Source of the DNA: a virus
Length of the DNA stretch: 38,866 bases
Virus record (IMG/VR): IMGVR_UViG_3300010411_000004
Location: 1-38,866 of that record
Strand: one strand, 5' to 3'
The notes under the pieces were generated by a model. That model was not told the origin of the DNA. It made no database searches and saw only the letters and a program-made list of their open reading frames with translations. Position 1 is the stretch's first letter; each line of letters starts with the position of its first letter. The position numbers were made by a program, and so were the translations under genes. Positions 2,383 through 25,123 of this stretch are shown here, piece by piece.

Positions 2383-2396
2383 GGTTGCGTACATAG
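2383..2396 (+). promoter_or_regulatory. Conserved 14-mer GGTTGCGTACATAG, copy 1 (candidate late promoter)
   Basis: Identical 14-mers occur at 21491..21504 and 25110..25123. This copy lies 19 nt after the giant ORF stop and 18 nt before the ATG at 2415, with the RBS AAGGAG in between. Confidence 0.5.
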
Positions 2397-2414
2397 GCAG
2401 AAGGAGTTCTGTCT

Positions 2415-2891
2415 ATGAGAAAAATACTTGTCGTTTTGTTTATTGTCGCCGCCTGCTTGGTTGCTCGGGCAGAAACCTGGGTGATGACCATCACCGCCAG
2501 CACGCGCGGGATTCCCTCGCAGAATATCAGCACCAATGATGTTACGGCCTGGACAAATGGGATCAGCGTTTCGGCCGGTGGGTATTATTCCAGCGGCGGC
2601 CGAACCTATATGGCGACATCGGCGGGGACATCAACGAATGCTCCGGCGCAGCGGATGGGCGCGGCAACCGGCGCGGACGGTGTGAGCTGGTTAACCTGTA
2701 TTTCAACCCTTGGAAATAAGGGGGTTGTCGCCTGCGTTCTGAGTGGGGATGAGGTTCATTATAACCGCAATGCTGCCGCAACCACGAACATGCCGTGGAC
2801 GGTTAAGGATGTATTTGATCCATCTCGCGGCGACTGGCGGTTTATTCCAGCTGGCGGCGGTACTTCTACCGTGTCGTTTCTCGAACTATAA
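2415..2891 (+). CDS. Secreted small protein, possible CBM5/12-like carbohydrate-binding motif
   Basis: RBS AAGGAG at 2401..2406. Sec-type signal MRKILVVLFIVAACLVARA/ET. The mature part contains WTNGISVSAGGYYSSGGRTYMATSAGTSTNAP, which resembles the W..G..V..G..Y.A pattern of CBM5/12. Confidence 0.8.
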   Translation: MRKILVVLFIVAACLVARAETWVMTITASTRGIPSQNISTNDVTAWTNGISVSAGGYYSSGGRTYMATSAGTSTNAPAQRMGAATGADGVSWLTCISTLGNKGVVACVLSGDEVHYNRNAAATTNMPWTVKDVFDPSRGDWRFIPAGGGTSTVSFLEL

Positions 2892-2900
2892 GGAGCCTGC

Positions 2901-4247
2901 ATGAAACACTCTATTTTTATCCTGCTGATTGCGGTTTTCTGTTTTGGGCCTTTGCGTCCATGTCCGGCTCAGGTTGAGTCAAAAATAGTTCCGGCCGGCA
3001 ACGTTCCGGTATCGATTCGTCCCGGCCTGCTGGGGGACTCTGGGATGAGTTTGATTGACTTCCAAACCTTGGAAACAAATGCAGTTCTACGCACAGACAT
3101 CGATGGCGGGTGGTTTTATCCGGACTGGTTCGCGTGGAGCTTTACGCAGGTGGCCGCCGATGGCATACCGGACACGACGACAGTCACCACGAATAATGAT
3201 GTCGTCGTCGAAAACAACGTCTATGAAGCTAAGGCTGGAAACTGGAATATCACATATTCATCAATCCGCTCTGCTGATTTTTCTAGCCCAGCCGTTGATT
3301 CATCAACCCCATCTGTGGCCACGGCAACCGTTTCGAAAGTCACCTATGTTTCCAGTGGAACGGCAGAAATAACCGCTACACTCGGTGCCTTCAGCCGCAC
3401 CACCAATCTGGTCATGGAGGTTGTTAGTTCTCTAAGCAATCAGGTTGTTATTGGCTGCGTGAGTGGATCGGCAGTCTGCGCATTTGCGAATGGGATCGAC
3501 AGCCGCTTAACCGATGGAACTGACAAGGCCGTTTATTCCACGCAGGATCACGCCGCCACCAACTATGTGCGTAACGCATCGAGCTGGGTGGCCGACATCG
3601 ATCTAACCTGCGTCAGCCCATGGAATAGCACGGAAGGTCGTTTGCGTGCCGGAACGCTCATCGGATCAGACTGCATAATATTTGCCAACCACTACCAAAT
3701 TGGCGCCGGCGCAACCGTTCGCTTTGTCACCTCAGATAACCGGGTAATCTCGCGCACCCTGGTCTCGAAGATCGGGAGCTACACAGGTGACTGGTGCGTC
3801 GGAAAGCTGTCATCTGCAATCTCAACAAACGATTGCCGCCCGGCGCTATTGCTTCCGGAGGATGAATCGTCTTACATGCCGTATCTTGATTATCGCGGCA
3901 TCCGCGCCGCCCTTTGGGTCGATCAATACGAAAACGCCTACGTCGGCGAGTTGCGCACCACGTCTCATATCGTTTCGTCCACCGACGCAACGAGATCTCT
4001 ATATGCCAAAGCCCCAATCGTCGGTGACTCCGGCAGCCCGGTGCTCCTAATTGCCGACTCTATGGCCGCGCCAATTTTCTGCGGAACGCTTTGGAGTTCG
4101 ATGGGCGGGCTTGGATCAACCGTCAGCTACAACGCCGCCATTCGCGTCGCCGCCGCAACCCTCGGATGCGCCACCAACACCATTGTCGATGTCTACTTTT
4201 CCGCCGCAGGCTTCATTAACTTTAATCCAGGCCCCGGTACACCGTAG
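2901..4247 (+). CDS. Secreted protein with an Ig-like region and a C-terminal trypsin/chymotrypsin-like serine peptidase domain
   Basis: RBS AAGGAG at 2889..2894. Signal MKHSIFILLIAVFCFGPLRPCPA/QV. A Big_2-like stretch reads ATVSKVTYVSSGTAEITATLG. The candidate triad is H264 (FANHY), D297 (GDWCVGKL) and S377 (IVGDSGSPVLL, codon 4029..4031), with S1-like spacing. Confidence 0.8.
   Translation: MKHSIFILLIAVFCFGPLRPCPAQVESKIVPAGNVPVSIRPGLLGDSGMSLIDFQTLETNAVLRTDIDGGWFYPDWFAWSFTQVAADGIPDTTTVTTNNDVVVENNVYEAKAGNWNITYSSIRSADFSSPAVDSSTPSVATATVSKVTYVSSGTAEITATLGAFSRTTNLVMEVVSSLSNQVVIGCVSGSAVCAFANGIDSRLTDGTDKAVYSTQDHAATNYVRNASSWVADIDLTCVSPWNSTEGRLRAGTLIGSDCIIFANHYQIGAGATVRFVTSDNRVISRTLVSKIGSYTGDWCVGKLSSAISTNDCRPALLLPEDESSYMPYLDYRGIRAALWVDQYENAYVGELRTTSHIVSSTDATRSLYAKAPIVGDSGSPVLLIADSMAAPIFCGTLWSSMGGLGSTVSYNAAIRVAAATLGCATNTIVDVYFSAAGFINFNPGPGTP
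3060..3074. repeat. TTCCAA-ACC-TTGGAA palindrome, perfect copy
   Basis: Read directly. It lies inside CDS 2901..4247 (codons FQTLE). Confidence 0.9.
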
Positions 4248-4255
4248 GAGATGCC

Positions 4256-5047
4256 ATGAAAAAAATGATTTTGCCAATAATGATTTTGCCAATGCTATTC
4301 CTATCCGGATTTGCCGCCGACCAGACGATCGCTCCGCTTCCAAAAATGACCGCCGCCGAAGCGTCCGAAACCGTACTCCCAGACGGCGTGATCGTTCGCA
4401 TCACCGATACATCGCCCGCCGATGTGCGCGTCGGCGACGGAGAAACCGCTGGCGGAATTCAAATCGGCGACGGCGAAGGCTGGCAGGAAGGCGACACCCT
4501 CACGCAAGATCTCTACACTGGCGGTCACACCATCCACCTCGGCGACTGGTCGATCCTAACTCTTGGCGGATGGGGCGCTATTGCGGGCGGCTCTGAATCG
4601 GTCTCTAACGACGGGACAATGCAATTCTCTGTGCTCGGCAGCATCCTCTTTGAGCTATCCAGCGAAAGCTCGCTCGTCAACATTAGCTCATTCGTCTGGG
4701 TCTCTCCGTACTTTGAAATAACAACGCTGCGCGGCGAAGTGCAACCCACCATCATGTTTTCCAGCAACCTCGTCTCCGGCGCTTGGGCTGAGGCTACCGT
4801 CGCGGAAGTTGTCACCAACGAAACCACCTTTGTTTTTAAAGTCGAAGCTCCAACGTCATACGGCTACTTCCGCGCCACCATCCCCAGCGGAAGCGGATCT
4901 ATGGCGAATTTTACAGCAACGATCCGGCAGAACGGAGAGCCGGTTGTAACAACTGGCACGGTGAATCTTTCCGGCCGACTTTTTGATGATGGGACAAATC
5001 TATTTGTAGTCGTTGGATCAGTGACAAATCAGCTTACAAGCAATTAA
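4256..5047 (+). CDS. Secreted protein with a tail-fibre-like Mtd_N-type motif
   Basis: RBS AGGAG lies 5 nt upstream. Signal MKKMILPIMILPMLFLSGFA/AD. VIVRITDTSPADVRVGDGETAGG resembles the ..DT......DG.T.GG N-terminal motif of BPP-1 Mtd and fibre proteins. Confidence 0.8.
   Translation: MKKMILPIMILPMLFLSGFAADQTIAPLPKMTAAEASETVLPDGVIVRITDTSPADVRVGDGETAGGIQIGDGEGWQEGDTLTQDLYTGGHTIHLGDWSILTLGGWGAIAGGSESVSNDGTMQFSVLGSILFELSSESSLVNISSFVWVSPYFEITTLRGEVQPTIMFSSNLVSGAWAEATVAEVVTNETTFVFKVEAPTSYGYFRATIPSGSGSMANFTATIRQNGEPVVTTGTVNLSGRLFDDGTNLFVVVGSVTNQLTSN
4265..4294 (+). repeat. 15-bp tandem duplication (atgattttgccaata / atgattttgccaatg)
   Basis: Read directly, 14 of 15 bases identical. It duplicates MILPI/MILPM in the hydrophobic core of the signal peptide. 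Confidence 0.9.
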
Positions 5048-5090
5048 CGGCGAAAGCCAGCCCTAACGGGTCGATGAAAGGAATAGCGGG

Positions 5091-5381
5091 ATGACATCTG
5101 AACAGAAGGAAATTGTCAAAGAAGGCGAGGGTTTAGAGGAGGAGCTGAAAGGCGGCAAGCCGGATGCTGTTCCGCGGTCAATCGCATTTTTAATCCGCCA
5201 GCAGCGCGTTCAGATGTTTTCGGAATTTGTAACGGACAAAGAGTGCAGAAACCGGATGTTGTTGTGTCCGGGAGCAAAGCCTCCTCCGGTTCAAAAGCCG
5301 CCGTTTACTTGGGCGGCCGCTTTCGCAACGGTCAGTTCTATTGCGATTTTTTGCGGAACTCTATTTGCAATTTTTCATTAA
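5091..5381 (+). CDS. Tail-anchored membrane protein (possible holin or lysis accessory)
   Basis: 96-aa ORF with a single C-terminal TM segment, WAAAFATVSSIAIFCGTLFAIF. It sits just upstream of the spanin pair. Confidence 0.55.
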   Translation: MTSEQKEIVKEGEGLEEELKGGKPDAVPRSIAFLIRQQRVQMFSEFVTDKECRNRMLLCPGAKPPPVQKPPFTWAAAFATVSSIAIFCGTLFAIFH

Positions 5382-5420
5382 CAATTTGCCGGAATGGTTC
5401 CGGCGGAAAAGGAGAACATC

Positions 5421-5651
5421 ATGGGTAAGGAAATTCTTAAAGCCGCCGTCGGGATGCTCCCGATGTTGGCGCGCGTAGTCAGCCCGACGCTGATTCGCAA
5501 GGCAACAAGTGCCTTCATTGAAGTAATCGAAGACGGTTGCCGCAAGTCTGAAAACAAGATCGACGACGCTTTGGTATTGCCGATCTGCGCCAATATTCGT
5601 TCTGCACTGAATCTACCGGACGAAGACGGCGATAACGGTGCTGAGGAGTAA
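5421..5651 (+). CDS. Hypothetical small protein in the lysis region
   Basis: ATG at 5421 is preceded by AAGGAG (5409..5414). The product is 76 aa. I prefer this start over the 5394 start in the ORF track. Confidence 0.55.
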   Translation: MGKEILKAAVGMLPMLARVVSPTLIRKATSAFIEVIEDGCRKSENKIDDALVLPICANIRSALNLPDEDGDNGAEE

Positions 5652-5654
5652 GCA

Positions 5655-5864
5655 ATGCCTGTCTGGGGAACCATCCTAATTGGAATCATTGGGCTGGTTC
5701 TCCGGCTTATTTACAAGGCGTATCGGCAAAAGGAGCAAGATGATCGCGTTGTTAAAAAAGGGGTTGCCAGTCCTGATTTGCGGAATACTGCTGTTAAGCG
5801 GTTGCGTCAGCAAAAAGCCAAACACTCTGCCGGTGAAGGATCAGGCGGATCTCCTTCCCCCTGA
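5655..5864 (+). CDS. Type II membrane protein, candidate i-spanin or holin-like
   Basis: RBS GAGGAG at 5644..5649. N-terminal TM WGTILIGIIGLVLRLIY is followed by a charged region. The 3' end overlaps the lipoprotein ORF in another frame. Confidence 0.5.
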   Translation: MPVWGTILIGIIGLVLRLIYKAYRQKEQDDRVVKKGVASPDLRNTAVKRLRQQKAKHSAGEGSGGSPSP

Positions 5865-5982
5865 AGGGCATATTTTCAAAAAGAACGAAATCCTTCAGCT
5901 TGGAGTAGATGGTGAGTGGCGCCGGAATGATGCGCCGGTTTTCTGGCGTGGTGGGTCTATTATAACCGGGCCAGAAGAATGA
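5740..5982 (+). CDS. Outer-membrane lipoprotein, candidate o-spanin
   Basis: The internal ATG at 5740 is preceded by AAAGGAG. The signal MIALLKKGLPVLICGILLLSG/C has an L-S-G-C lipobox. The mature part is short and Pro-rich. It overlaps the upstream TM protein, which is the overlapped spanin architecture. Confidence 0.7.
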   Translation: MIALLKKGLPVLICGILLLSGCVSKKPNTLPVKDQADLLPPEGHIFKKNEILQLGVDGEWRRNDAPVFWRGGSIITGPEE

Positions 5983-6239: not shown

Positions 6240-6270
6240 CCCGCACGCTGTCAGGTCTATGGCAGAGAAT

Positions 6271-6303
6271 CCGCATCCTTGCACGGGATGCGGTTTATTT
6301 TTT
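6271..6303 (+). terminator. Rho-independent terminator at the end of the late/lysis operon
   Basis: Stem ccgcatcc, loop ttgcacg, stem ggatgcgg, followed by tttatttttt. Confidence 0.75.
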
Positions 6304-6354: not shown

Positions 6355-7872
6355 TTAAGCCGCAACGCCAAACACTGTAAAGCGTTCCGTTTCAAAGAGC
6401 ATCATGGGTTCGTCTAAAATCGGTTTGGGTCGCCATTCTGGCACATTAGACGAACCGGGCAGGTTCACCGTTAATTCCCAACGATTTGCAGAGCGGTGTA
6501 TTCCTTTGACGTAGGTGGTGATGAGCTGTCGCTGGTCTTTCGGATTCCCTTCTGCCGCGTCGATGAGTTTGCTGATGTTTTTGAGGCGGAGGGCAAAGCC
6601 GATGATTTCTTCTTCTACTTCTTTGGATGGGCCGCAACAGCTCTCGGCGGCTGCCAGCTGGCCGGTGAGCCGGTTGGTTTCTGCGGTGGCCTGTGCCAGT
6701 TCTTTGTTCATGAGATCGGCGTTGTCCGCCGTGATGAGTCCGTCGATGAACATGCGGGTGAGCCGTTCTTTTTTGCTTTTCGCGCGGGTGAGCGCCCGGC
6801 GCAGATCGGGAGCTTCCGGCTGGGCGGTGCGGCGTTTTTCGGCGGCAAGGCGGATGCTGTCGACAATGCGGTCGATGTCGGCTTCTTCAAGACGGATGGA
6901 GCGCAGGATGGCGAGCACTTCGGTTTCGAGTTCCGGAGCGGAGGTGCGGGAGCAGCAGGTTTCGCGGTCGGTGCACTGGTAGTAATGATAACGCTGTGTG
7001 CGGCCGTGGGCTGAGGCGGGTGTCATGGCGCGGCCGCAATCGCAGGTGATGAGGCCGGTGAGCAGGTAGGGATATTTCTGCATGGAGGGTCGCGGGGCGT
7101 GGCCGTGTTCGGGGATGATGCGCTGGCAGCTGGCAAATAGATCGGGACTGATGAGCGGTTCGTGCTGCCCTTTGTGTTCCTGACCGGCATAGGGAAGCCT
7201 GCCGAGATAAATGCGGTTGCGCAGGATGTAGAGGACGGTGTTGGTTGCCAGTCCGTAGCTGCGGGCGAGTTCGCGCGGGCCGGTTCCGCCGGCAGAACGG
7301 AGGAATATTTCCCGGACGTGTTCCGCCTTTTCAGGATCCGGAATTAGCCGGTTGTCGCGTTTTCCGGCGCGTTTATAGCCGTAGGGCAGAACCCCGACCG
7401 GCCAGAGCCCTTTGGCGGCGATGGAGTTCATCTTCATGCGGGTGCGTTCGGCGCAGAATTCGCGCTCCATCTGGGCGATGGAGAGCAGGATGTTGATGAC
7501 GCCTCTGCCGGATGGTGTCGAGCTGTTGAGCCCCTGCGCGGTGGCAAGGAGGTGCTTTCCGTTGGCATGGAAGAGTTCGAGGGCATTAACGGCATCGGAG
7601 ATTGAGCGGCTGAAGCGGTCGAGGTGGCGCACCACCAGAGCGTCCCATGTGGCGGAGCCGGATTTGACATCGGCAATGATCTGCATCCATCCGGGGCGTT
7701 TAGACGAACCGCCGCTTTCAAACTCATCAGTGACTACGCCAAGAACCTCCCCTTCCGGATCGGTGGCAAGGACGAAGGCGCGGCACTGTGCGGCCTGATC
7801 GGTGACGGTGGTTTCGCCGCCCGTCCAGCTGGAGCCTTTTGGTGATACTCGGGTGTAGATGAGATATTTCAT
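6355..7872 (-). CDS. Large serine recombinase (integrase)
   Basis: MKYLIYTRVS contains the catalytic Ser motif. VVRHLDRFSRS is present. A recombinase domain is followed by a Cys-rich zinc ribbon (CDCG...YYQC) and a C-terminal coiled coil. The ATG at 7872 is preferred over the 7926 start in the ORF track. Confidence 0.92.
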   Translation of the reverse strand: MKYLIYTRVSPKGSSWTGGETTVTDQAAQCRAFVLATDPEGEVLGVVTDEFESGGSSKRPGWMQIIADVKSGSATWDALVVRHLDRFSRSISDAVNALELFHANGKHLLATAQGLNSSTPSGRGVINILLSIAQMEREFCAERTRMKMNSIAAKGLWPVGVLPYGYKRAGKRDNRLIPDPEKAEHVREIFLRSAGGTGPRELARSYGLATNTVLYILRNRIYLGRLPYAGQEHKGQHEPLISPDLFASCQRIIPEHGHAPRPSMQKYPYLLTGLITCDCGRAMTPASAHGRTQRYHYYQCTDRETCCSRTSAPELETEVLAILRSIRLEEADIDRIVDSIRLAAEKRRTAQPEAPDLRRALTRAKSKKERLTRMFIDGLITADNADLMNKELAQATAETNRLTGQLAAAESCCGPSKEVEEEIIGFALRLKNISKLIDAAEGNPKDQRQLITTYVKGIHRSANRWELTVNLPGSSNVPEWRPKPILDEPMMLFETERFTVFGVAA

Positions 7873-7889
7873 AGGGAAGACCTTAGACT

Positions 7890-8213
7890 TTAGGCTGTAG
7901 GCTTGAGGGTGGAGTTTTTGCCACAAAAAACACGATAGGACACGAAAAGAAGCAGTCCGGCGGTGAAGGGGTCAATGACGGCCCACAGCTCCCGGTCGAG
8001 GTGGATGGGAAGCAGTGGGTTGAACAGGACGGACGTTCCGATTAGAACGGAACGTATCCAGCGCGGCTGAAAGTTCCAATCTTTGGAAAACAGCAGCCAG
8101 AGGGCGCAGGCGGTGACGGCGATGCGCAGCAACTGGTAATAGCCGTAGGGCATGGGTGCCCAGGCCAGCAGAAGCGCGGCGGCTGTGGCGATGGATGGAA
8201 GATGTTTTTTCAC
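7890..8213 (-). CDS. Small polytopic membrane protein
   Basis: The GTG start overlaps the upstream stop (GTGA). It has 3-4 hydrophobic helices and the motif PYGYYQLLRIAV. It is co-oriented with the integrase. Confidence 0.65.
   Translation of the reverse strand: MKKHLPSIATAAALLLAWAPMPYGYYQLLRIAVTACALWLLFSKDWNFQPRWIRSVLIGTSVLFNPLLPIHLDRELWAVIDPFTAGLLLFVSYRVFCGKNSTLKPTA
8074..8088. repeat. TTCCAA-TCT-TTGGAA palindrome, perfect copy
   Basis: Read directly. It lies inside the minus-strand CDS 7890..8213. Confidence 0.9.
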
Positions 8214-8602
8214 GGACGGATTCCGATTCGTTTGAGAATTGCCGGAATAAAGGCGATGAAGCCGACGGTGAGAGACAAGATCATTGCAAGTGCGATTGGA
8301 GCGCCAGCGCAGGCGGCCGACTTGCGGCAGCTGTTAAACCACGGAATGATCAGGATGGCCGGAATGATGAAAAATCCGGGACTGATCGCAAAGGCCGCAG
8401 CAGTTGAAAGCAGTCCGATCTGCCCGAAAATTGATGCGTTGTCTGAATGATAAACACCAGGATCTTCAAATTGCATAAGTTTCTCTATAGGTGATTTTGC
8501 TTCAGGTTTTTTACGATATTTTTCTGGAACAGGTTTCCCGCGGCAGTCTTCGCATTGAGTTCCGAAAAGGATCAGGCATCCGCAATTTTTGCAGTACAAC
8601 AT
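8210..8602 (-). CDS. Zinc-ribbon protein with two C-terminal TM helices
   Basis: ATG at 8602 lies 8 nt after AGGAG on the minus strand. The N-terminus is MLYCKNCGCLILFGTQCEDCRG (CxxC...CxxC), followed by hydrophobic helices. Confidence 0.65.
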   Translation of the reverse strand: MLYCKNCGCLILFGTQCEDCRGKPVPEKYRKKPEAKSPIEKLMQFEDPGVYHSDNASIFGQIGLLSTAAAFAISPGFFIIPAILIIPWFNSCRKSAACAGAPIALAMILSLTVGFIAFIPAILKRIGIRP

Positions 8603-8616
8603 CAGAACGGCTCCTG

Positions 8617-8817
8617 TTATTTCCAAAGTTTGGATAGTTTGCCGCCCGGTGTAATTTGCAAGACGAGCCTTCTGTAGTTGTTACAGCATGGATAGTTAAG
8701 TCCTTTTTGATAGTCCAGAACTTGCATCGTGGCCGTAGCTCCGCAATTTACGCAAGGAGTGGTTCGGGTTGGTTCGCTTGCGCCGCACTTTTTAAACATT
8801 CGAATTATCCAGTTCAC
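8617..8817 (-). CDS. Small Cys-rich (zinc-ribbon-like) protein, first gene of the leftward operon
   Basis: The ORF contains CVNCG...CC. The start is uncertain (GTG 8817 or ATG 8799) and no strong RBS is present. Confidence 0.4.
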   Translation of the reverse strand: MNWIIRMFKKCGASEPTRTTPCVNCGATATMQVLDYQKGLNYPCCNNYRRLVLQITPGGKLSKLWK

Positions 8818-8876
8818 GCGGGCAGAATAACAGACGGTAAAAAAAATGAAAATACATGTTGCGTTGTTTTAACAAG

Positions 8877-8889
8877 GGTGTTAAACACC
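8877..8889. promoter_or_regulatory. Operator-like palindrome GGTGTT-A-AACACC, copy 1
   Basis: Read directly. It lies 18 nt upstream of the first RHH gene, in the divergent intergenic region. Confidence 0.6.
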
Positions 8890-9083: not shown

Positions 9084-9237
9084 GAGATTTCTCGGCGTTA
9101 GAGTCGATGAGAAGCTCTACCAACAAGTCGCAGCCGAGGCTGAGTTGGAAGATCGTTCAATTAATTATGTGGTTGAGCGTTTTTTAAGAGAGGGTGTTAA
9201 ACACCTTGATCCGAAGCGCGATCTACAACCTGCATAA
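9070..9237 (+). CDS. Second ribbon-helix-helix DNA-binding protein
   Basis: The 55-aa ORF is below the ORF-track cutoff. It contains KRFLGVRVDEKLYQQVAAEAELEDRSINYVVERFLREG and overlaps the previous gene by 14 nt. Confidence 0.75.
   Translation: MKKNKRFLGVRVDEKLYQQVAAEAELEDRSINYVVERFLREGVKHLDPKRDLQPA
9193..9205. promoter_or_regulatory. Operator-like palindrome GGTGTT-A-AACACC, copy 2
   Basis: Read directly. It lies inside the 3' end of the second RHH gene. Confidence 0.55.
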
Positions 9238-9251: not shown

Positions 9252-9266
9252 GGGTGTTAAACACCC
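9252..9266. promoter_or_regulatory. Operator-like palindrome GGGTGTT-A-AACACCC, copy 3 (7-bp arms)
   Basis: Read directly. It lies 12 nt upstream of the ATG at 9278 and 60 bp from copy 2. Confidence 0.6.
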
Positions 9267-9447: not shown

Positions 9448-9696
9448 ATGGAAAAAAAACCAACAGCGGGCACCAAAGCGAAGCGCAAGGCAGGCGGAAA
9501 CCGTCGGCGGGGTGCGCGGGTGTTTTCGGGGCCGGTGGTGGTTGCCGGGGTGGTTTCTGAGCGTCCGGCGTTTCGAGGGCCAGATGTGGGCGAGATGATT
9601 TTTAGCTGGTTCTACCGCGAAGCGGATGCGGCCGATCCGGCGGCGCAGATGGCTTACTGCAAGGGTCAAATGGCGGGGGTCGAGTGTCGGGCGTGA
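9448..9696 (+). CDS. Hypothetical protein with a basic N-terminus
   Basis: 82-aa ORF that abuts the previous stop. Confidence 0.5.
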   Translation: MEKKPTAGTKAKRKAGGNRRRGARVFSGPVVVAGVVSERPAFRGPDVGEMIFSWFYREADAADPAAQMAYCKGQMAGVECRA

Positions 9697-9851
9697 ATTA
9701 CAGCAAGAGTCCGGCTCCGGCGGGGGCTTGCCCGGTGTGCTGGCACCGTTACGGAAAGATGATCAGCGATTTGAACTGCGATCTCCACACGGATGATGAG
9801 CGGCTGTTTATCAGGGAGAAGGAAAAAGAAGGCTTTGGGCCACAGGCTTGA
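9693..9851 (+). CDS. Hypothetical small Cys/His protein
   Basis: The GTG start overlaps the previous stop (GTGA). The 52-aa product contains CPVCWH...C..H. Confidence 0.35.
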   Translation: MNYSKSPAPAGACPVCWHRYGKMISDLNCDLHTDDERLFIREKEKEGFGPQA

Positions 9852-9894
9852 GGCTTGAGTTGAAACAAGAAACCAAAAACAGGGAGAAAAAACC

Positions 9895-10353
9895 ATGTGC
9901 AAGGTGACGATTCATGAAGTGAAGAAGGCGAAGACTCCAGTAAAAAGCCCTCCGGGCGTGAAGCCGTGGACGCTGTTCATTATGGAGTGCGTAATTTCGG
10001 TCGATTCCAATACCAAGACCGACGTTCGGACGGTGAAGACGTTCGAGCAGGATATTTATCAGCAGATCCACACGATGCAGGCGGGAACCACGCTGACATT
10101 TGAGGCGGAGAAGAAGCCGGACGGGTCGGTATTCGAGTACACGATTAAGAGCCAGAAGGCGTCCGGCTATCGCACCCAGCATGGACGGGGCGGGACGGAG
10201 CCGTTCGGCCCGACGAATCGGCAGTGCTGCCTGAAGGTGGCGGTGGATCTGGAGCGGGCACGTTCCGGAGAGTCCGGAGAGATTCCGACTACTCTAAAAA
10301 TTCTTGAAACCGCTGAGGTACTTTTGCAGTGGCTGGAAGGCGGTGCCAAATGA
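9895..10353 (+). CDS. Hypothetical protein
   Basis: 152-aa ORF with a GGGAG RBS. The N-terminal half is beta-rich. No family recognised. Confidence 0.65.
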   Translation: MCKVTIHEVKKAKTPVKSPPGVKPWTLFIMECVISVDSNTKTDVRTVKTFEQDIYQQIHTMQAGTTLTFEAEKKPDGSVFEYTIKSQKASGYRTQHGRGGTEPFGPTNRQCCLKVAVDLERARSGESGEIPTTLKILETAEVLLQWLEGGAK

Positions 10354-13182: not shown

Positions 13183-13575
13183 ATGAGAAAGCTACAGGGT
13201 CACAAAGTGAATCCGGCGAATGATCGGCTGGAAATTGAAGTGATGGATGCGCCAGGTGCCGGAGGTGCAAATCATGTTTATCGAGTAACCGGATTTGATG
13301 CTCCAGCCCCAAAGCGTGAAGAAATTCCGGCGGCTGATGGATCGGCAGACATTATTTTTCAGGATGGTCCTATTCCTGAAAATGGCGTGAATGGGTTGAC
13401 GCAGGAAGTTCTGTTGGAAATCTGCGCGGATCGCCTTCGCTCGTTTCAGGCCGGGCCGTTTGCCTGCCGTGAAAATGCGCTGGCACTGACGAAGATCGAA
13501 GAGGCGCAGATGTGGCTTCAGAAGCGTACGCGTGACCGCATGGCTCGTAACGTCGAAGGCACTCACAAGCTGTAA
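13183..13575 (+). CDS. Conserved phage protein of unknown function
   Basis: RBS AAAGGAGG. The motifs GAGGANHVYRV and NGLTQEVLLEICADRLRSFQAGPFACRENALALTKIEEAQMWL...RNVEGTHK recur in many phage hypothetical proteins, from memory. Confidence 0.8.
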   Translation: MRKLQGHKVNPANDRLEIEVMDAPGAGGANHVYRVTGFDAPAPKREEIPAADGSADIIFQDGPIPENGVNGLTQEVLLEICADRLRSFQAGPFACRENALALTKIEEAQMWLQKRTRDRMARNVEGTHKL

Positions 13576-13581
13576 TCAATT

Positions 13582-13627
13582 TTCTAACCCTTGGAAATTT
13601 CCAGACGGATTTTTCCAAGGGTTGGAA
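13582..13627. promoter_or_regulatory. Intergenic pair of TTCCAA-N3-TTGGAA-type palindromes forming a 12-bp inverted repeat
   Basis: TTCTAA-CCC-TTGGAA is at 13582..13596 and TTCCAA-GGG-TTGGAA is at 13613..13627. AACCCTTGGAAA (13586..13597) is the reverse complement of 13612..13623. Confidence 0.6.
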
Positions 13628-13661
13628 TGGTGCAACGATTTTAACGCGAATGGAGATTCCA

Positions 13662-15790: not shown

Positions 15791-16492
15791 ATGGGACTGA
15801 ATAAGTGCAAGGGGAATATGTATGACTGGATCACGCACACGCATACCCATTTGGCCGGGCGGTGTCCGCATGAGTGCGTGTATTGCTCCATTCAGGATTT
15901 GCAGAAGCGTTTTCCCAATCTGCCGTACAGCGGGCCGCTGCGGCTGAAGGAAAAAGAGTTCGCCGTGCAGTATGGCACCGGCAAGACGATTTTTGTTGAG
16001 AACTGTAACGATCTGTTTGCCGATGCGGTGCCGCTGGCGTGGATTGATCGGATTCTTGATCATTGTAGCGCGTGGCCCAAGAACGAATATATCTTTCAGA
16101 CGAAGAATCCGCATCGGCTTGCGGCAGGAATTTGGGTTTTTCCTCCCCGCTGCCTGATAGGGATAACGGTTGAGACAAACCGGGATAATGATTTAGGCAA
16201 CGCTCCATCTCGGCCTGATCGGCTTCGTTCGTTTATCCACATTGATTCTGAGTTTAAGACGTTCATCACGATCGAGCCGATTATGGATTTCGATCTGGAT
16301 GAGTTTGTCCGGCTGCTGATTGCGGCACAGCCTGATTTTGTGAACATCGGGGCGGATTCTAAAGGGCACGGGTTGCCGGAGCCTTCGTTCGAGAAGGTGA
16401 TACAGCTGGTGGACGCGCTGAAGGCCGCGGGCATTGAGGTGCGCGAAAAGCGGAATTTGGAGCGGCTCGGTTCGTCTAAACAACCGGCTTGA
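15791..16492 (+). CDS. DUF5131 (phage Gp37/Gp68)-like protein with a CX3CX2C radical-SAM-type motif
   Basis: GRCPHECVYCS is the Cys motif. IFVENCNDLFADAVPLAWIDRIL...IFQTKNPHRL...ITIEPIMD...DFVNIGADS follows the DUF5131 block order as I recall it. Confidence 0.75.
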   Translation: MGLNKCKGNMYDWITHTHTHLAGRCPHECVYCSIQDLQKRFPNLPYSGPLRLKEKEFAVQYGTGKTIFVENCNDLFADAVPLAWIDRILDHCSAWPKNEYIFQTKNPHRLAAGIWVFPPRCLIGITVETNRDNDLGNAPSRPDRLRSFIHIDSEFKTFITIEPIMDFDLDEFVRLLIAAQPDFVNIGADSKGHGLPEPSFEKVIQLVDALKAAGIEVREKRNLERLGSSKQPA

Positions 16493-16523
16493 TTTGTCTT
16501 TCCTTATAGAAGGGTGGTTTTTT

Positions 16524-17738
16524 GTGAGCAACGGACGGTTTCGCGGGCATTTTTTTCAACAGCTGAATCATCAGCGGGTGGGTTTGATGGCGCAAGGGCT
16601 TCCGGCCGTGGAGAGCGCCGTTTTTTTGAAGGCGTTGCTGCTGGTTGGGCTTTCCCGCCAGCAGTTTGATTTTACGGATGGCAGCTTGTCGGTGTCCGGT
16701 AAGCGGATGACGGCGGATGAGTTTGCGGGGTGGATTGCCGGTGTGACTCCCCAGGTTACGGCGGCGCGGGCATTGAAGGCGCTGGAGGTGCTTTGCGGGG
16801 CCGGGCTTCTCTCTATTAAAGGAAAGGGGCATTACGTCCGGATTGTGGATTGGGCGAAGGATCAAGGGGGAGCCCCGACGGCCGGGGCAGACCGGATGCG
16901 CAAGATGCGAGATGAGAACCGGCTGGCGGATGCCCGCGGCGCGTTGTCGAAATTCGACGGTACCGTGTTCGAGGCGGATGACCTGATTTATCAGATTCAG
17001 AGTGCGCTGAAGTGCAAACGGCAAATTGCGGGAAAAATTTTAGACGCTTTGGGGGATGAGGGTTTTGTTATGCCCGCCGAGGGTGGAAGGCTGTGCTTGC
17101 GTGTGGGTGTTTCGCCTAAGCCTGCCGCGCCTTCGGCGCTGCATCCCCCCCATGAGAGTGAGGGCGCAATAGCGCGTGAAAGTGAGGGTCACATGATGCG
17201 CCCTGCGGGCGTCACATGTGACAATCATTATCATAATCATAATCACAAGAGAGATGTGAATACATCTCATGATCATGATAGGCGCGCGCCCGGATACGAG
17301 CGCGGCCATGAGAAGAGCGAACCGCCTGCCGGATCGCTTCGCTCTCCGGCAGGTTCCGGGTTCGATGAGAATGATGGGGGGGGATGCAGCGCCGAAGGCG
17401 CGGGGTACCGCGCAGATCGTGCAGACCGCTCAACTGACGGTAAGCGCGGGTTGGATATTTTTTCTGTTCCTGATTCCGATCTGCCTGAGGCGGCCTGCCG
17501 GATTTGCCGTCCGAGCGATTTCGCAAAGTCGAAGGGAATTCTGACTTCGAAGATGATGGGTTTGAGGCGTGTGTTCGGACCGCAGAAGGCGCGGCAGATT
17601 TTTTGCGAAGAAACGGCCGCCGTGCAGACGGATATTCTCTGTCCCGGTGCGCGGGAGTTGCGAGAACCGGCGCGGGAGCTGTGCGCCAGGCTAAACGAGC
17701 GGATGGGTCAACCGCGAAGAAAGGAACGGGTGGCGTGA
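16524..17738 (+). CDS. Replisome-organiser / replication-initiator-like protein
   Basis: GTG 16524 follows AAGGGTGG. The N-terminal winged-helix-like region reads FFQQL...AVFLKALLLVG...VLCGAGLLSIKG. The middle is low-complexity and overlaps an AT-rich repeat island. Confidence 0.6.
   Translation: MSNGRFRGHFFQQLNHQRVGLMAQGLPAVESAVFLKALLLVGLSRQQFDFTDGSLSVSGKRMTADEFAGWIAGVTPQVTAARALKALEVLCGAGLLSIKGKGHYVRIVDWAKDQGGAPTAGADRMRKMRDENRLADARGALSKFDGTVFEADDLIYQIQSALKCKRQIAGKILDALGDEGFVMPAEGGRLCLRVGVSPKPAAPSALHPPHESEGAIARESEGHMMRPAGVTCDNHYHNHNHKRDVNTSHDHDRRAPGYERGHEKSEPPAGSLRSPAGSGFDENDGGGCSAEGAGYRADRADRSTDGKRGLDIFSVPDSDLPEAACRICRPSDFAKSKGILTSKMMGLRRVFGPQKARQIFCEETAAVQTDILCPGARELREPARELCARLNERMGQPRRKERVA
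17157..17290. other. Candidate origin of replication inside the initiator gene
   Basis: Direct repeats AGTGAGGG at 17157 and 17181. 12-bp palindrome GTCACATGTGAC at 17211..17222. Four hexamer repeats (ATCATT ATCATA ATCATA ATCACA) at 17224..17247. Inverted repeat GAGATGT/ACATCTC, then ATGATCAT, then GGCGCGCGCC. The region is locally AT-rich in a GC-rich gene. Confidence 0.4.
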
Positions 17739-18091
17739 TGGTTTGCAAGCAGGAGTTGAAAGCAGAGCTGGAGAAATCGCTGGCGGCCGGTGTGATGACG
17801 GATCGTTTTGCGGTGCTGGCTGAGGAGATTGTGGCCGGCTATTTCAGCCAGCGGAGCATGAAGGGCTTTTCTGCCGGAGTGCGTGAGGAGTTTATGGGGT
17901 TTTTCCGGATGAGGCTGGTGCGGTATTGGCAGAAGCTGGATCCGGAGCGCAATCCGCATTCTGCGATTACCCAGCAGGGGCGCTGGGCGGTTCTGGATTC
18001 AGAACGGAAGTTTAAGCAGCGCAAGCGGCTGATGGAGCGGATGCGTGAGAATGGCAGTTTTGATGAGGCGCTGGGAGAAACCGCACTATGA
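17738..18091 (+). CDS. T4 gp55-like late sigma factor candidate
   Basis: ATG overlaps the previous stop. FAVLAEEIVAGYFSQRSMKGFS...FMGFFRMRLVRYWQKLDPERNPHSAITQQGRWAVLDSERKFKQRK aligns by eye with T4 gp55 (...FNFSGYT...[34 protein letters not shown], recalled from memory). Confidence 0.55.
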   Translation: MVCKQELKAELEKSLAAGVMTDRFAVLAEEIVAGYFSQRSMKGFSAGVREEFMGFFRMRLVRYWQKLDPERNPHSAITQQGRWAVLDSERKFKQRKRLMERMRENGSFDEALGETAL

Positions 18092-18288
18092 GTTATTCGA
18101 AGGGCGGGCGGAAGGTAATGGAGCGGGTTTCTGATGTTCCGAGCTGGGTGGGTTTGCCTGAGATTTCTCGGGATGCTGACTTTGTGACGTTCAAGACGCG
18201 GCGCGGCCGCAAGCAGGTTCCGGTTGGGGATGTGGAGCGATGGGAACGGTTCCGCTGTAGCGGAAGAGAACGAAGAAAGGGAAAATGA
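18088..18288 (+). CDS. Hypothetical small basic protein
   Basis: 66-aa ORF with an ATGA overlap. Confidence 0.5.
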   Translation: MSYSKGGRKVMERVSDVPSWVGLPEISRDADFVTFKTRRGRKQVPVGDVERWERFRCSGRERRKGK

Positions 18289-18554
18289 TGAGCAAGAACA
18301 ATGAGTTGAGAAAGGCGCGGCGGCTGGAGGTTCGCCGGAAAGTCGCAAGACGGACGGCGCTGAATGTGTTTTTGAAGATGCAGAGTCTTTCGTTGCGCGA
18401 GCGACTGAAGCTTGCGCGGTTGCTGGTTTGGCAGAGTGATTTGAAGTTTGAGGCGCGCAAGCAGGGGAAGAGTGTTTCCGTGCTGATTGGTGAGATGAAT
18501 AAGCCGAACAGTCGCGGCAGCGGAGCTGACCGCGTTGGTTCGGCTGGATGTTGA
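18285..18554 (+). CDS. Hypothetical basic protein
   Basis: 89-aa ORF with an ATGA overlap. Confidence 0.5.
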   Translation: MMSKNNELRKARRLEVRRKVARRTALNVFLKMQSLSLRERLKLARLLVWQSDLKFEARKQGKSVSVLIGEMNKPNSRGSGADRVGSAGC

Positions 18555-21013: not shown

Positions 21014-21676
21014 ATGAATGCAGAGTGTCGAGTGTTGGGTGGCGGAGAGAATCAAGAGAATGTGTTTATTCATTTGAAGCCGACGGCGGAAGAGGTGCGC
21101 GGGGTCTATCTGGAGATGGCGGCGGCCGATACGCTGAAGCACCTGCCGGAGTTCATCCGCGATGTGAAGGACTGGATGGAATATTTTCTTCCGAAACCGA
21201 AAAAGCCGCGGGCGATTGCATTTTGTCCGGTGGTAATCGAGGTGGATGGACGCTATCCGGCGATGATTTATCTGACGGACTGGCGGGAGCGCGGGCAGAG
21301 CGCGCAGGTTCATTTTGCGGCGCATGCGCAGTTCCGGCCAAAGACGGTTTTTTGTGCCTGCCGATTGGCGGTGGAGATGATTTTGCGCAGCAAAGAGGTG
21401 GATTTGCTGGATGTTTGCTGCACAGAGGACAACGTGCGATCCATCAAAATGGCGGCAGCGATGGGGTTTGTTGAGACGGCGCGTGCGGCTGGTTGCGTAC
21501 ATAGCTCGAAAACACTCAAAGGGGAGATTTATGACGCCAAAGGCAAAGAAGCTAGACGATCCGACGAAGGCGGCCGCTCCGGTTACGCCGGAAAACGCGG
21601 ATGTGCAGGCAGCCGGAGAAGCGGAGCGTCGCAGGCTTCAGCAACAGCAGGGGAGGCAGACCACCTACCGGGTTAA
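21014..21676 (+). CDS. GNAT-like acetyltransferase (putative) with an unusual 3' extension
   Basis: NVRSIKMAAAMGFVE resembles the GNAT motif. The last 45 or so codons are low-complexity and overlap the next gene and the conserved 14-mer. Confidence 0.5.
   Translation: MNAECRVLGGGENQENVFIHLKPTAEEVRGVYLEMAAADTLKHLPEFIRDVKDWMEYFLPKPKKPRAIAFCPVVIEVDGRYPAMIYLTDWRERGQSAQVHFAAHAQFRPKTVFCACRLAVEMILRSKEVDLLDVCCTEDNVRSIKMAAAMGFVETARAAGCVHSSKTLKGEIYDAKGKEARRSDEGGRSGYAGKRGCAGSRRSGASQASATAGEADHLPG
21491..21504 (+). promoter_or_regulatory. Conserved 14-mer GGTTGCGTACATAG, copy 2
   Basis: Identical to copies at 2383 and 25110. It ends 26 nt upstream of the ATG at 21531. Confidence 0.5.
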
Positions 21677-21731
21677 TCCGATGGAGGGCGGGCAGTTTGC
21701 GAATATGCTGAAAACCAGAACGGGCGACTAA
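21531..21731 (+). CDS. Small virion-module protein
   Basis: RBS GGGGAG. The 66-aa product contains QQQQGRQTTYRV. It lies between the GNAT-like gene and the portal gene. Confidence 0.55.
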   Translation: MTPKAKKLDDPTKAAAPVTPENADVQAAGEAERRRLQQQQGRQTTYRVNPMEGGQFANMLKTRTGD

Positions 21732-21786
21732 GGGATTGCGGATTGAAGATTTACGATTGCTGATTTCAGCCTGAAGAAAGAGAATT

Positions 21787-23463
21787 ATGGCGAAGACGAT
21801 TGCCGAAAAGATCATCAAAACGCGCGACACGCTGAAAAGCAAGCGGTCGACGTATAAGACGGTTTGCGATGATGTGTGCCGTCTGTTTAATCCGGAACTG
21901 GAGGATCTGCTGGAGGCTCCGGAAGGTTCTGAGGTTCTTCAGCCGATTATTTCGACGGGGATTCTGGCGCAGGAACGGATGACGTCGGGTCTATTTTCGA
22001 ACACGATGAGCATGGGCCGCGGGAACATCATCGACCAGGACCCGAAGAAGATGAAGCAGCCGGAGGTGACGCGGTTCTATACGGCGCTGAGTAAATCAAC
22101 CCACCGGCGGATCCAGCAGAGCCCGTTTCCTGAATCGTACAACGAGATGTTGACCGGGTTCGGTGCGCGCGGTGAAGGGTGTTTCTATGTCGATTTCAAT
22201 GAAAAGACGCTTCAGCACGAGTTTTTGGTGTATCCGTCGACGAAGGTCTTTCCGGTGCGGGATGCGCGCGGGAATCTGATTGAGGTCTATCGGGAATACG
22301 AATTGAGCGCGGCGGAAGCGGTGGCGGAGTTTGGTCTGGATGAGGTGACCGATGAGATCCGCAAGGCGTACGAGAAAGAGGATCACGATAAAAACTTTGA
22401 GTTTGTGCATGTGCTGCGCCGCAGGCGTGAGCGCAACACCAAGCGGCGCGACAGCAAAAACATGCCGTTTGAGAGTATCCATGTGGAGGTTTCGAAGAAG
22501 GCCAAGGTGAAAGAGTCCGGCACGCACCGGATGCGCTATTTGATGCCGCGCTTTTATGTGCGCGACGGGGAGCTTTCGGGTCGATCCCCGGCGATGAAGG
22601 CGCTGCCGGTGGCGCGCACGCTGATGAAGGTGGTGAGCGACCACATGGACGGCGTGGAATTGCAGATTGGCCCGCCTATTTTTCTACCGGACAAGGATGC
22701 GGTGGAGTCTGCCGTGCTGGAAGCTTTCGGGGTGAACTATTGCGATACGAGCAAGGGGCAGATTTTCACCTATAACGGCAGTGGAAACCTTCAGCTGAGT
22801 GCCGATTTTATTGAGTTTTTGAAGGATGAGCTGAACAAGCTGCATTATGTTGATCTGTTCACAATGCTTGAGCAGATCAAAAACAGCGCCAAGACGGCGT
22901 TTGAAATTTCCCAGCTGGTGGCGGAGCGCATTCAGGCGATCAGCCCGGTGATTAACCGCCTGAGCAGCGGATTTTTTGCGCCGCTGTATGAAATCGTGGC
23001 GGAAGACATTCTAGCCTTCAACCTTCTGAATGAGCAGATTCCGGCGGTGCTTCTGCAGGACAGCGGTGACGGGCAGGGCAGCGGGTTCAATGTGCAGTAC
23101 ACGAGCCGTCTGGATGTGCAATTGTCGGATCTGGAGCTGTCGAGTCTGGCGCAGGCTGTGATGCAGGCCGGTGAGATGGTGGCCGCAATTAAACAGAATC
23201 CGTATCTGGATGCTGCGCTGAAGTGTGATGTCTTGATCCGCAAAATTTTCGAGGCGAAGAACGTCGACACGGAAATGATGTACACGGATCAGGAATATAA
23301 AGACAACGTGAAGGCCTTTTTGGAGGCGCAGGCCAAGCAGGCGCAGCAGGAGGCTCTGGCGAGTGCCGTGAAGCCGATTGATGCCCAGCGGAAGTCTGAG
23401 CCGGGCAGTCCGATTGAAGCTGTGGGTGAGGCACAGAAGCAGAACCAAACGGTGGCAATTTGA
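21787..23463 (+). CDS. Portal protein (T7 gp8-type head-to-tail connector)
   Basis: 558 aa, positioned after the terminase genes. RFYVRDGELSGRSPAMKALPVARTLMKV parallels T7 gp8 MVRLDGESYGRSYIEEYLGDLRSLENL. Confidence 0.88.
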   Translation: MAKTIAEKIIKTRDTLKSKRSTYKTVCDDVCRLFNPELEDLLEAPEGSEVLQPIISTGILAQERMTSGLFSNTMSMGRGNIIDQDPKKMKQPEVTRFYTALSKSTHRRIQQSPFPESYNEMLTGFGARGEGCFYVDFNEKTLQHEFLVYPSTKVFPVRDARGNLIEVYREYELSAAEAVAEFGLDEVTDEIRKAYEKEDHDKNFEFVHVLRRRRERNTKRRDSKNMPFESIHVEVSKKAKVKESGTHRMRYLMPRFYVRDGELSGRSPAMKALPVARTLMKVVSDHMDGVELQIGPPIFLPDKDAVESAVLEAFGVNYCDTSKGQIFTYNGSGNLQLSADFIEFLKDELNKLHYVDLFTMLEQIKNSAKTAFEISQLVAERIQAISPVINRLSSGFFAPLYEIVAEDILAFNLLNEQIPAVLLQDSGDGQGSGFNVQYTSRLDVQLSDLELSSLAQAVMQAGEMVAAIKQNPYLDAALKCDVLIRKIFEAKNVDTEMMYTDQEYKDNVKAFLEAQAKQAQQEALASAVKPIDAQRKSEPGSPIEAVGEAQKQNQTVAI

Positions 23464-23717
23464 AAACGGGCCGAACCAAAAGGGCTTTAGCGGGTGATTC
23501 TCAGGCGAAACGGTCTGCACGGTTTCGCAAGGTGTTTGGCACGGTGGACGGGAAGCGGGTGCTCGAGGATCTGATTGAAGAGTCTGGGATGAACGGAAAG
23601 CTGTTTGCTCCGGATGCGCGGGTGCAGGAACACAAAGTGGCCCGCAATGATTTTATGGTTTGGGTTTTGGATCAGATAAACTGGAAGCCGCAAGGCAAAG
23701 GAGGAAGTGATGAGTAA
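23460..23717 (+). CDS. Small conserved protein after the portal, Bbp19-like by memory
   Basis: The TTG start overlaps the portal stop. It contains FRKVFGTVDGKRVLEDL...ARNDFMVWVL. Confidence 0.5.
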   Translation: MKTGRTKRALAGDSQAKRSARFRKVFGTVDGKRVLEDLIEESGMNGKLFAPDARVQEHKVARNDFMVWVLDQINWKPQGKGGSDE

Positions 23718-24084
23718 GGTTGTGCTGACAAGTGCCCTGCTGTTGGGCGGAAAAGTGGACGTGAAGGCCGTTACTGCCAAGGATCTGGCAGACTTCATCG
23801 AGGCCGAAAAGCTGGATGTGAAGGCCGAAGGGCAGAAGAAGGACGTTTTGAATGCTATTTGCGATGCGCTGGAAGCGCGCGGCGATGAGCCTCCTGAAGA
23901 GGATGATGCCGATGCCGTTACCGGTGATCCGGGAGTTCAGCAGTCGAACTATCTGAAGCGGCGGGCAAAAAAGATTGCGGCCGGACGCGGCGAGCTGGAT
24001 AAGATCGGCTCGAATCTGGAAGAGGAGTCGAAGAAAAGCTCCTACATTGCCCGGCGTTTCAAAAAAATGAATCCGAAACGGTAA
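23710..24084 (+). CDS. Hypothetical head-module protein
   Basis: ATG 23710 lies 5 nt after AAAGGAGG. The product is 124 aa, first acidic then basic. Confidence 0.6.
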   Translation: MSKVVLTSALLLGGKVDVKAVTAKDLADFIEAEKLDVKAEGQKKDVLNAICDALEARGDEPPEEDDADAVTGDPGVQQSNYLKRRAKKIAAGRGELDKIGSNLEEESKKSSYIARRFKKMNPKR

Positions 24085-24093
24085 GGAGCGCTG

Positions 24094-25095
24094 ATGCTTA
24101 AATTTATTCTTGCGATGTTTTTTCCGCTGTTGCTTGGTTCGGTTCGCTATGTTGGCGAAGACGGAGGTGGTGATGGCGGCGGTGACGGCGGAGCTGGTGG
24201 TGATGGTTCCGGTGACGGCGGCGGATCTGGGGGTGATGGTGGCGACGGTTCTGGTGGCGTGATTAATCATGGCGGTGGAGCGCATAGCCGGGAGCTGAAT
24301 CCGGACGGTGATCGCAAACCTGCCGGTGGCGACGGCGCAAAGCCGTGGTATGAGACGGCCGGGCTTCCAGCTGAATTACTGACGGACAAGGACAAGGAAT
24401 ATAAAACACTGCCTGATTTCGTGAAGGGGGCCCAGAGCGCCCGCCAGCTGGCGGCATCCAAAGGGATTCCATTGCCTCCGAAAGACGCTACGCCCGAACA
24501 GCAGGCGGCCTTCAAGGCGGAAGTGATGAAGCATTTTCCGGATCTGCCGATGGCGCCGGAAAGCGCGGACAAGTATGAAATTCCGATGTTCAAGGATTCC
24601 GGTCTGGCGGAGGGTCGGCAGAAGGCGATTAAAGAATCGTTCCATAAGGCCGGTCTGAGCAATGCGCACGCGGCGGCGGTGATGGATGTGTATTCCGAGC
24701 AGGTTGCTCAAGACATTGCTGAAATTCAGGCGCAGGTTGCCGAGCAGCGCAAGGTGACGGAAGCCGAGTTGAAGCAGGCATGGGGTGCTGAATATGCAGA
24801 CCGCAAGGCCGGGATCGACCGGATCGGCGCGCGCTATCCTGAACTGATGGAAGTCATGAAAGCGTCCGGTCTGGATGGCCGCAAGGACTTCAATGAGATG
24901 ATGGATGAAGTGGCACGCAGTGTTCGGGAGGATCATCCCGGCGGATCGGGTCGCGAAAGTGCGGAGTCGGTAGACGGGCAGATTAAGGATCTGCGCGAAA
25001 AAATCAAGAAGACGGAAAACTCGCACGAGCGCAGTAAGCTGATTGAGCAGCAGGGTGCTTTATATAAAAAGCGCGAAAAACTGCGCGGGCGATAA
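24094..25095 (+). CDS. Scaffolding protein (putative)
   Basis: RBS TAAGGAG. It lies between the portal and capsid genes. It has a Gly/Asp low-complexity tract and a long helical, charged C-terminus. The N-terminus is hydrophobic (MLKFILAMFFPLLLGSV). Confidence 0.7.
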   Translation: MLKFILAMFFPLLLGSVRYVGEDGGGDGGGDGGAGGDGSGDGGGSGGDGGDGSGGVINHGGGAHSRELNPDGDRKPAGGDGAKPWYETAGLPAELLTDKDKEYKTLPDFVKGAQSARQLAASKGIPLPPKDATPEQQAAFKAEVMKHFPDLPMAPESADKYEIPMFKDSGLAEGRQKAIKESFHKAGLSNAHAAAVMDVYSEQVAQDIAEIQAQVAEQRKVTEAELKQAWGAEYADRKAGIDRIGARYPELMEVMKASGLDGRKDFNEMMDEVARSVREDHPGGSGRESAESVDGQIKDLREKIKKTENSHERSKLIEQQGALYKKREKLRGR

Positions 25096-25109
25096 ATCCG
25101 CAACATTCT

Positions 25110-25123
25110 GGTTGCGTACATAG
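25110..25123 (+). promoter_or_regulatory. Conserved 14-mer GGTTGCGTACATAG, copy 3
   Basis: Identical to the other two copies. It lies 15 nt after the scaffold stop and upstream of the capsid gene. Confidence 0.5.

Follow-up and report, generated by a model that had tools for sequence, protein, structure and literature searches.

The late genes and their candidate promoters

The window analysed here is a 38,866-nucleotide (nt) stretch of viral DNA, the IMG/VR record IMGVR_UViG_3300010411_000004, and represents a complete circular genome. A 14-mer, GGTTGCGTACATAG, occurs in it in exactly three copies, every one on the plus strand and ahead of late genes, and a gene at 17738 encodes a 117-amino-acid (aa) homologue of gp55, the late sigma factor of phage T4. 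We suggest that the three copies are late promoters, probably read by the host core RNA polymerase together with this small sigma factor. Bases 1–99 are repeated at 38768–38866, and this 99-nt terminal duplication means that the contig is circular or terminally redundant. The plus strand carries nearly all genes. A short minus-strand block at 6355–8817 contains the gene for a large serine recombinase, an indication that the phage is temperate. The structural genes form a T7-like module that runs from the portal (PF12236) through scaffold and capsid to the tail and internal-protein genes, and the open reading frame (ORF) at 19–2364 encodes the C-terminal end of a 2682-aa virion protein, the full ORF of which continues across the junction of the circle. 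We class the phage as a temperate podovirus with a circular genome of ~38.8 kb and a head module of the T7 type. Its features relevant to late transcription are as follows:

2383..2396, plus strand: motif copy 1, candidate late promoter P-L3, predicted start ~2402–2403
21491..21504, plus strand: motif copy 2, candidate late promoter P-L1, predicted start ~21510–21511
25110..25123, plus strand: motif copy 3, candidate late promoter P-L2 (capsid), predicted start ~25129–25130
17738..18091, plus strand: gene for the 117-aa gp55-like sigma factor, with a short N-terminal segment and a region-2 homology domain
25122..25153, plus strand: intrinsic terminator-like hairpin (AGGGCGAGG GAACA CCTCGCCCT) with a T-run
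25154..25290, plus strand: conserved multi-hairpin leader of the capsid mRNA
26366..26398, plus strand: strong terminator-like hairpin directly 3′ of the capsid gene
21787–23463, plus strand: portal gene (PF12236 match)
33086..38767 joined to 1..2364, plus strand: giant virion-protein ORF (2682 aa, LPD3 domain), at the end of the structural module
6271..6303, plus strand: terminator-like hairpin ending the late and lysis block

The original prediction had named three identical plus-strand 14-mers, which are indeed present as exact copies at 2383–2396, 21491–21504, and 25110–25123, and had called their chance occurrence negligible. This holds: a degenerate 11-mer core, TGCGTAYATWG, gives 3 perfect matches against 0.03 expected per genome. 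With one mismatch allowed there are 3 copies against 1.3 by chance, and with two mismatches 20 against 19. Since the mismatched copies are at chance level, the three sites stand alone as sharp matches and do not belong to a degenerate family.

Copy 1 lies 19 nt past the stop of the giant ORF (2364) and 18 nt ahead of the ATG at 2415, the first of a series comprising three genes with signal-peptide-like N-termini and small genes of lysis-gene size. Copy 2 is located 26 nt 5′ of a 66-aa gene (21531–21731, ATG at 21531), which precedes the portal gene, and copy 3 is found 15 nt past the scaffold stop and ~165 nt ahead of the capsid ATG at 25291. These placements are as earlier described, with the addition that copy 2 also falls within the 3′ part of ORF 21014–21676, which in this clade runs on through the motif and overlaps the 66-aa gene by 146 nt in a different frame. 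The orthologue of this ORF in one relative (L025) shows a weak match to an acetyltransferase family (Acetyltransf_3), and in three relatives (L021, L025, and L029) its equivalent ends just ahead of the motif, which is intergenic there. The motif is missing from the early and lysogeny region of the window. A near-copy at ~29367, to which attention had also been drawn, is most likely a chance occurrence, because it lies within a coding region and its 11-mer is present in no other locus examined.

Conservation of the motif in related phages

A nucleotide search of sequenced phages in GenBank revealed no close relatives, the portal protein being at most 28% identical; two prophage scans of genome contigs found none, and no tRNA genes were found in the window. 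The relatives compared here are metagenomic and viral contigs found via the capsid, the giant protein, and the sigma gene, and make up a set of 24 loci from ~15 distinct genomes. The only hint at a host is that one of them, the distant relative L023 (GCA_030673825.1, a metagenome-assembled genome of Verrucomicrobiota bacterium JB024; coordinates 1065–2159, 9525–10085, and 10947), was binned as Verrucomicrobiota.

In all 24 loci a core, GCGTAYAT(A/T)(G/C), is present on the plus (coding) strand only, with fewer than 0.3 matches per locus expected by chance. The copies all lie at orthologous late-gene boundaries, with a single extra match, in L019, and thus bear out the expectation that the motif would be conserved upstream of orthologous genes. 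The conserved sites are the one before the pre-portal small gene, the scaffold/capsid gap, and the one 3′ of the giant virion-protein gene. An orthologue of copy 2 is present in every relative whose sequence spans that site, and orthologues of copy 1 (GATGCGTATATAG) occur after the giant ORF, 16–19 nt 5′ of the equivalent ATG, in L008 and L009. In L023 the motif stands directly before terS, with five bases between motif and ATG, so that the ATG starts exactly six bases after the motif; this spacing implies a leaderless mRNA. The motif is kept in relatives whose sigma factor is 47% (L021), 33% (L025), and ~26% (L023) identical to that of the window, and the intergenic flanks diverge freely.

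The comparison also redraws the element. Its core is conserved, but the functional core is a 10–11-mer, (T)GCGTAYAT(A/T)(G/C), and not the 14-mer, whose GGT is GGG or GGA in L028, the closest relative by sigma identity. Similarly, the C(C/T) prefix noted earlier is present at the window copies and is not conserved in the relatives, including the closest one. No conserved −35 element was found in an alignment of 19 instances, in which only the 2–3 bases adjoining the core are conserved upstream. Everywhere, five bases separate the 3′ end of the motif from a purine run (AGGAG, GGGAA, or AAAC), which, together with the spacing of the terS ATG in L023, fits a start 6–7 nt downstream. A more divergent family member, L027, is without GCGTATATAG and carries three plus-strand GTAYATAA words, too weak to interpret.

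Copies within one genome all carry the same variant: the sixth core base (the Y position) is C in the window and in L028, whose sigma factors are 94% identical, and the ninth is T in L006 and L007. Such concerted variation within genomes is the pattern expected from a common trans-acting reader. A sigma-54 promoter (GG and GC 10 bp apart, at −24/−12) was considered and rejected, as GG and TTGC are adjacent in the motif and nothing is conserved 10 bp upstream.

A region-2-only homologue of gp55

The 117-aa protein alone has no Pfam or PHROG match, and among its weak tblastn matches the only named ones are cyanophage gp55 proteins. An exhaustive profile search yielded a sigma family of ~100 cluster representatives, the profile of which matches the gp55 profile with an hhalign probability of 97.8% (E 7e-13) and has T4 gp55 as its top PDB sequence match (7d7c_F, E 2.3e-7); PHROG 234 (‘late sigma transcription factor’) is matched by 24 of 81 family members. 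The AlphaFold model of the protein has a predicted local distance difference test score (pLDDT) of 92.4, and its top Foldseek match is gp55 in the late open complex (7d7c_F; probability 1.00, template modelling score 0.72, root-mean-square deviation 2.6 Å), followed by region-2 domains of other sigma factors. The 17738 product is therefore a genuine gp55 homologue, as had been claimed, but of the T4-type sigma it retains region 2 only: the alignment spans gp55 residues ~3–125, and the C-terminal part with the sliding-clamp-binding motif is missing. Clamp, gp33-like, and RNA polymerase genes were not detected among the window ORFs scanned with Pfam and PHROGs. A sigma homologue is present on every relative contig whose sequence spans that region.

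In T4, the flipped promoter bases (−12, −9, and −8) are held by gp55 residues N13, L54, R57, F86, H95, Y97, and T99 (PMC7892883). H95 and T99 are kept in the window sigma as H74 and T78, F86 corresponds to Leu67, and the equivalents of N13, L54, and R57 are ambiguous in the alignment. In L006 a T78N change occurs together with the A-to-T motif variant; we make no claim of covariation for this position, because S, Q, and V are found there with the standard motif.

Some members of the sigma family (P0026, P0043, P0048, and P0062) carry a C-terminal helix-turn-helix domain, so that the family spans region-2-only and two-domain forms; its transposase-type and helix-turn-helix PHROG matches stem from these tails. 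L023 encodes a 186-aa version of the sigma factor along with its own DNA polymerase III beta-clamp gene (DNA_pol3_beta), and the two together may represent a version of the system that is coupled to the clamp; a clamp-binding motif was not identified in the C-terminus of the 186-aa protein. A separate partner resembling sigma region 4 was also considered, and one is encoded by L025, but no homologue of it occurs in the window.

Terminator and leader at the capsid copy

The terminator-like hairpin at 25122–25153 begins at the last two bases of motif copy 3 and is kept in relatives with compensatory changes. The predicted start, at ~25129, lies in its 5′ arm, leaving only two arm bases in the RNA; transcripts initiated at this promoter could therefore not form the hairpin. 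RNA arriving from upstream would fold into it and stop there, while RNA initiated at copy 3 would bypass the terminator and run into the structured leader and the capsid gene. Between copy 3 and the terminator at 26366, the capsid gene forms its own bracketed unit. The leader (25154–25290) is about as conserved across relatives as the adjoining coding DNA and contains several hairpins, some with compensatory changes. It matches no Rfam family, and may serve as a stabilising or translational leader of the most abundant late mRNA. If this reading is true, a promoter placed inside a terminator would provide a compact stop-and-restart of transcription at one spot.

The same arrangement is reminiscent of PR′-tR′ in phage lambda, where an intrinsic terminator comes immediately after a late promoter, and it raises the alternative that the motif is a binding or loading site of another phage regulator, either a late activator or a Q-like antiterminator acting on the copy 3 terminator, with several small ORFs adjoining the sigma gene (18088–18554) as candidates for its gene. 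We consider this improbable. The likeness to lambda holds at copy 3 only, two of the three copies being without a terminator, and the scan of the window ORFs detected neither a Q-like nor an activator family. Further to that, the motif differs from typical dimer operators in its asymmetry and strand specificity, and both the copy 1 orthologues and the terS copy of L023 are too near the start codon to leave room for a separate downstream promoter. Lambda uses Q antitermination, whereas in the window a start inside the terminator stem would make bypass possible with no antiterminator.

The terminator also bears on the idea that the motif works at the RNA level, being either a site of endonuclease processing or a signal for stability or translation within a long polycistronic late transcript. 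Such a role would agree with its strand specificity, its position between cistrons, and its proximity to ribosome-binding sites at copies 1 and 2. However, the terminator 3′ of copy 3 would cut the motif off from the capsid mRNA, and the distance to the start codon varies from 5 nt (L023 terS) to ~165 nt (the window capsid copy). The copies share no secondary structure and have no Rfam match, and a DNA word conserved exactly amid diverging flanks would more typically reflect protein–DNA recognition, all of which makes this the least credible of the alternatives and, in our view, a very improbable one. Two candidate structures at the motif were rejected as well: a known structured RNA, for which no relevant Rfam match was obtained even at E <= 1, and a hairpin formed with upstream sequence at copy 3 (CGCAAC...GTTGCG), which is not kept in relatives.

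A probable single-element late promoter

The reading we favor as probable is that the three copies are late promoters used by the host core RNA polymerase under the direction of the 117-aa sigma factor. The motif is strand-specific, stands at the heads of late blocks, is without a conserved −35 element, and is kept at orthologous sites, which on comparative grounds argues for the original view of it as a late −10 element. T4 late promoters consist of one 8-bp TATA box, placed about a helical turn before the start, and lack a −35 element (PMC2988020), and gp55 truncated at its C-terminus still makes open complexes and supports basal transcription (PMC7892883). Given these two precedents, direction of the core polymerase by the 17738 sigma is the most economical reading.

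From the computed motif statistics, the conservation at orthologous sites, and the homology and fold of the sigma factor, we infer the pairing of sigma and motif, the start positions, and the timing, as well as the terminator bypass outlined above. The region-2 domain would bind the beta-prime clamp helices, as T4 gp55 does, and recognise the single −10-like element (T)GCGTAYAT(A/T)(G/C) with no −35 contact, and transcription would begin at a purine 6–7 nt 3′ of the motif. The sigma gene closes the early and replication operon, and its product would accumulate and then turn on three late units: (i) from copy 2, the small gene, portal, and scaffold; (ii) from copy 3, the capsid; and (iii) from copy 1, the signal-peptide proteins and lysis genes. 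Whether the 117-aa region-2 sigma alone would suffice for the specificity of the core polymerase at a 10-bp element, with no region 4, gp33, or clamp, is a separate matter, on which our leaning is tentative and slightly towards the negative.

Several observations weigh against the pairing of sigma and motif. The gp55 tyrosine Y97, which stacks on the flipped −12 adenine, is Ala76 in the window sigma and alanine in this clade. No simple case of residue-to-base covariation emerged among the relatives, in which S, Q, and V at the T99-equivalent position all occur with the same motif. The 5′ half of the motif (GCG) and its G+C-rich spacer are unlike T4 late promoters, which are AT-rich there. The co-occurrence of sigma and motif is partly by construction, because many relatives were retrieved via the sigma gene. 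Finally, the TAYATA core could also be a −10 hexamer for the host primary sigma.

This last point leads to the strongest of the alternatives, namely that the motif is an extended −10-type promoter for a host sigma factor, primary or alternative, perhaps with a phage activator, and that the gp55-like protein works elsewhere. If transcription starts 6–7 nt downstream, TAYATA would occupy the place of the −10 hexamer (TATATT in L006 and L007), and a motif that stays nearly unchanged while the phage sigma diverges to ~26% identity would be natural for a conserved host factor. On the other hand, a −35 element is lacking, as is a correctly spaced TGn, the copies in each genome vary in concert, and the motif is missing from the early and lysogeny region, where promoters for host sigma factors must exist. 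Moreover, wherever the region is covered, a gene for a dedicated sigma of the gp55 type closely precedes the late genes, and the use of single-element promoters independent of a −35 is what defines the gp55 family. On balance we regard recognition by a host sigma as unlikely, and retain the phage-encoded sigma as the probable reader of the motif.

Comparison with known late transcription systems

T4 offers the closest parallel. The region-2 domain of its gp55 is homologous to the window sigma in sequence and predicted fold, and its late promoters are, as is proposed for those of the window, single short −10-like elements with a TA(T/C)A core, no −35 element, and a position ahead of structural genes. 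The differences are considerable, however. The T4 consensus, TATAAATA, has only the TAYA.A core in common with the window element GCGTAYAT(A/T)(G/C), and the sequence between box and start is AT-rich in T4 but G+C-rich in the window and its relatives (GGCGA, GCAGA, and CTCGA 3′ of the core). T4 gp55 has 185 aa and a clamp-binding C-terminus, as against 117 aa and no such tail, and T4 employs the gp33 co-activator and a clamp, neither gene being found among the window ORFs scanned. T4 has ~40 late promoter sites and the window three. T4-like phages are myoviruses, whereas that of the window is a podovirus, temperate and with a head module of the T7 type.

The layout, by contrast, recalls the class III promoters of T7. 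There, phi10 precedes capsid gene 10 and T-phi follows it, and the window likewise brackets its capsid gene; phi17 follows gene 16, and a candidate promoter of the window similarly follows the giant internal virion protein gene. T7-type promoters contain CTATAG, and the window motif also ends in ATAG. A T7-type promoter, suggested by the CATAG ending and the T7-like placement, was nonetheless ruled out, as no RNA polymerase gene was found among the ORFs scanned: the only ORFs large enough are the 2682-aa virion protein (LPD3) and an 861-aa tail-module ORF at 28212–30797 with no Pfam match. T7 encodes a single-subunit RNA polymerase that recognises 23 conserved bp, while the window conserves ~10 bp and encodes a sigma-type factor instead.

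In phages phiEco32 (gp36) and SPO1 (gp28 and gp33/34), a phage sigma redirects the host core polymerase to middle or late promoters with a consensus of their own, as is proposed here. Those sigma factors have two domains (regions 2 and 4) and use bipartite −35/−10 promoters; the window sigma has region 2 only, and its putative target is a single element.

Other repeats in the window

A perfect 27-nt inverted repeat (CCGCGCCTTCGGCGCTGCATCCCCCCC and its complement) at 17125–17403 encloses 225 nt and lies within ORF 16434–17738, which immediately precedes the sigma gene. An inverted repeat of 23–31 nt, perfect or nearly so, is found at the equivalent position in each of the seven relatives examined. 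The sequences of the arms vary between genomes but their complementarity is kept, and C-runs and G-runs are found at the inner ends in nearly all. Two unrelated types of enclosed segment occur, each rich in palindromes and short direct repeats and each containing an AT-rich run; in the window and L021, at least, the segment does not interrupt the ORF. The structure resembles a replication origin lying within the gene for an initiator, in the way that the ori of lambda lies within gene O. We regard an invertible segment as less likely, since the orientation is the same throughout all genomes of each type.

A palindromic TTCCAA-N3-TTGGAA occurs in approximately nine copies (2194, 2697, 3056, 13578, 13609, 30363, 33053, 33976, and 34084), of which two are adjacent in the intergenic gap 13575–13650 and one lies at the end of the gene at 31476–33053; it might form a small hairpin or be bound by a dimer. 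Another palindrome, GGGTGTTAAACACC, is present at 8876–8889, 9192–9205, and 9252–9265, where its three copies surround two ribbon-helix-helix genes at the start of the plus-strand early operon and are probably operators of the lysis-lysogeny switch. Three tandem 33-nt units at 27670–27768, in the gene at 26965–28215, give rise to an 11-aa repeat in a tail-module protein.

Implications

This lineage joins a pared-down gp55 homologue to a T7-like head module and a temperate way of life, and its putative promoter word could be read directly from comparative genomics. The case also illustrates how a word with three exact copies in the DNA of a phage can be a genuine signal for regulation. If the proposed pairing is true, 117 aa and 10 bp would make up a minimal sigma–promoter pair, the protein would be the smallest working sigma known, and gp55-type late transcription would reach beyond the T4-like phages. 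Related podoviruses with longer versions of the sigma factor would provide a graded set, at one end the minimal sigma and at the other a clamp-coupled one. The pair would be useful for studying DNA melting and recognition by a lone region-2 domain and could be employed as a compact orthogonal expression switch, and the motif would supply a ready rule for annotating late operons in this uncultured group of phages.

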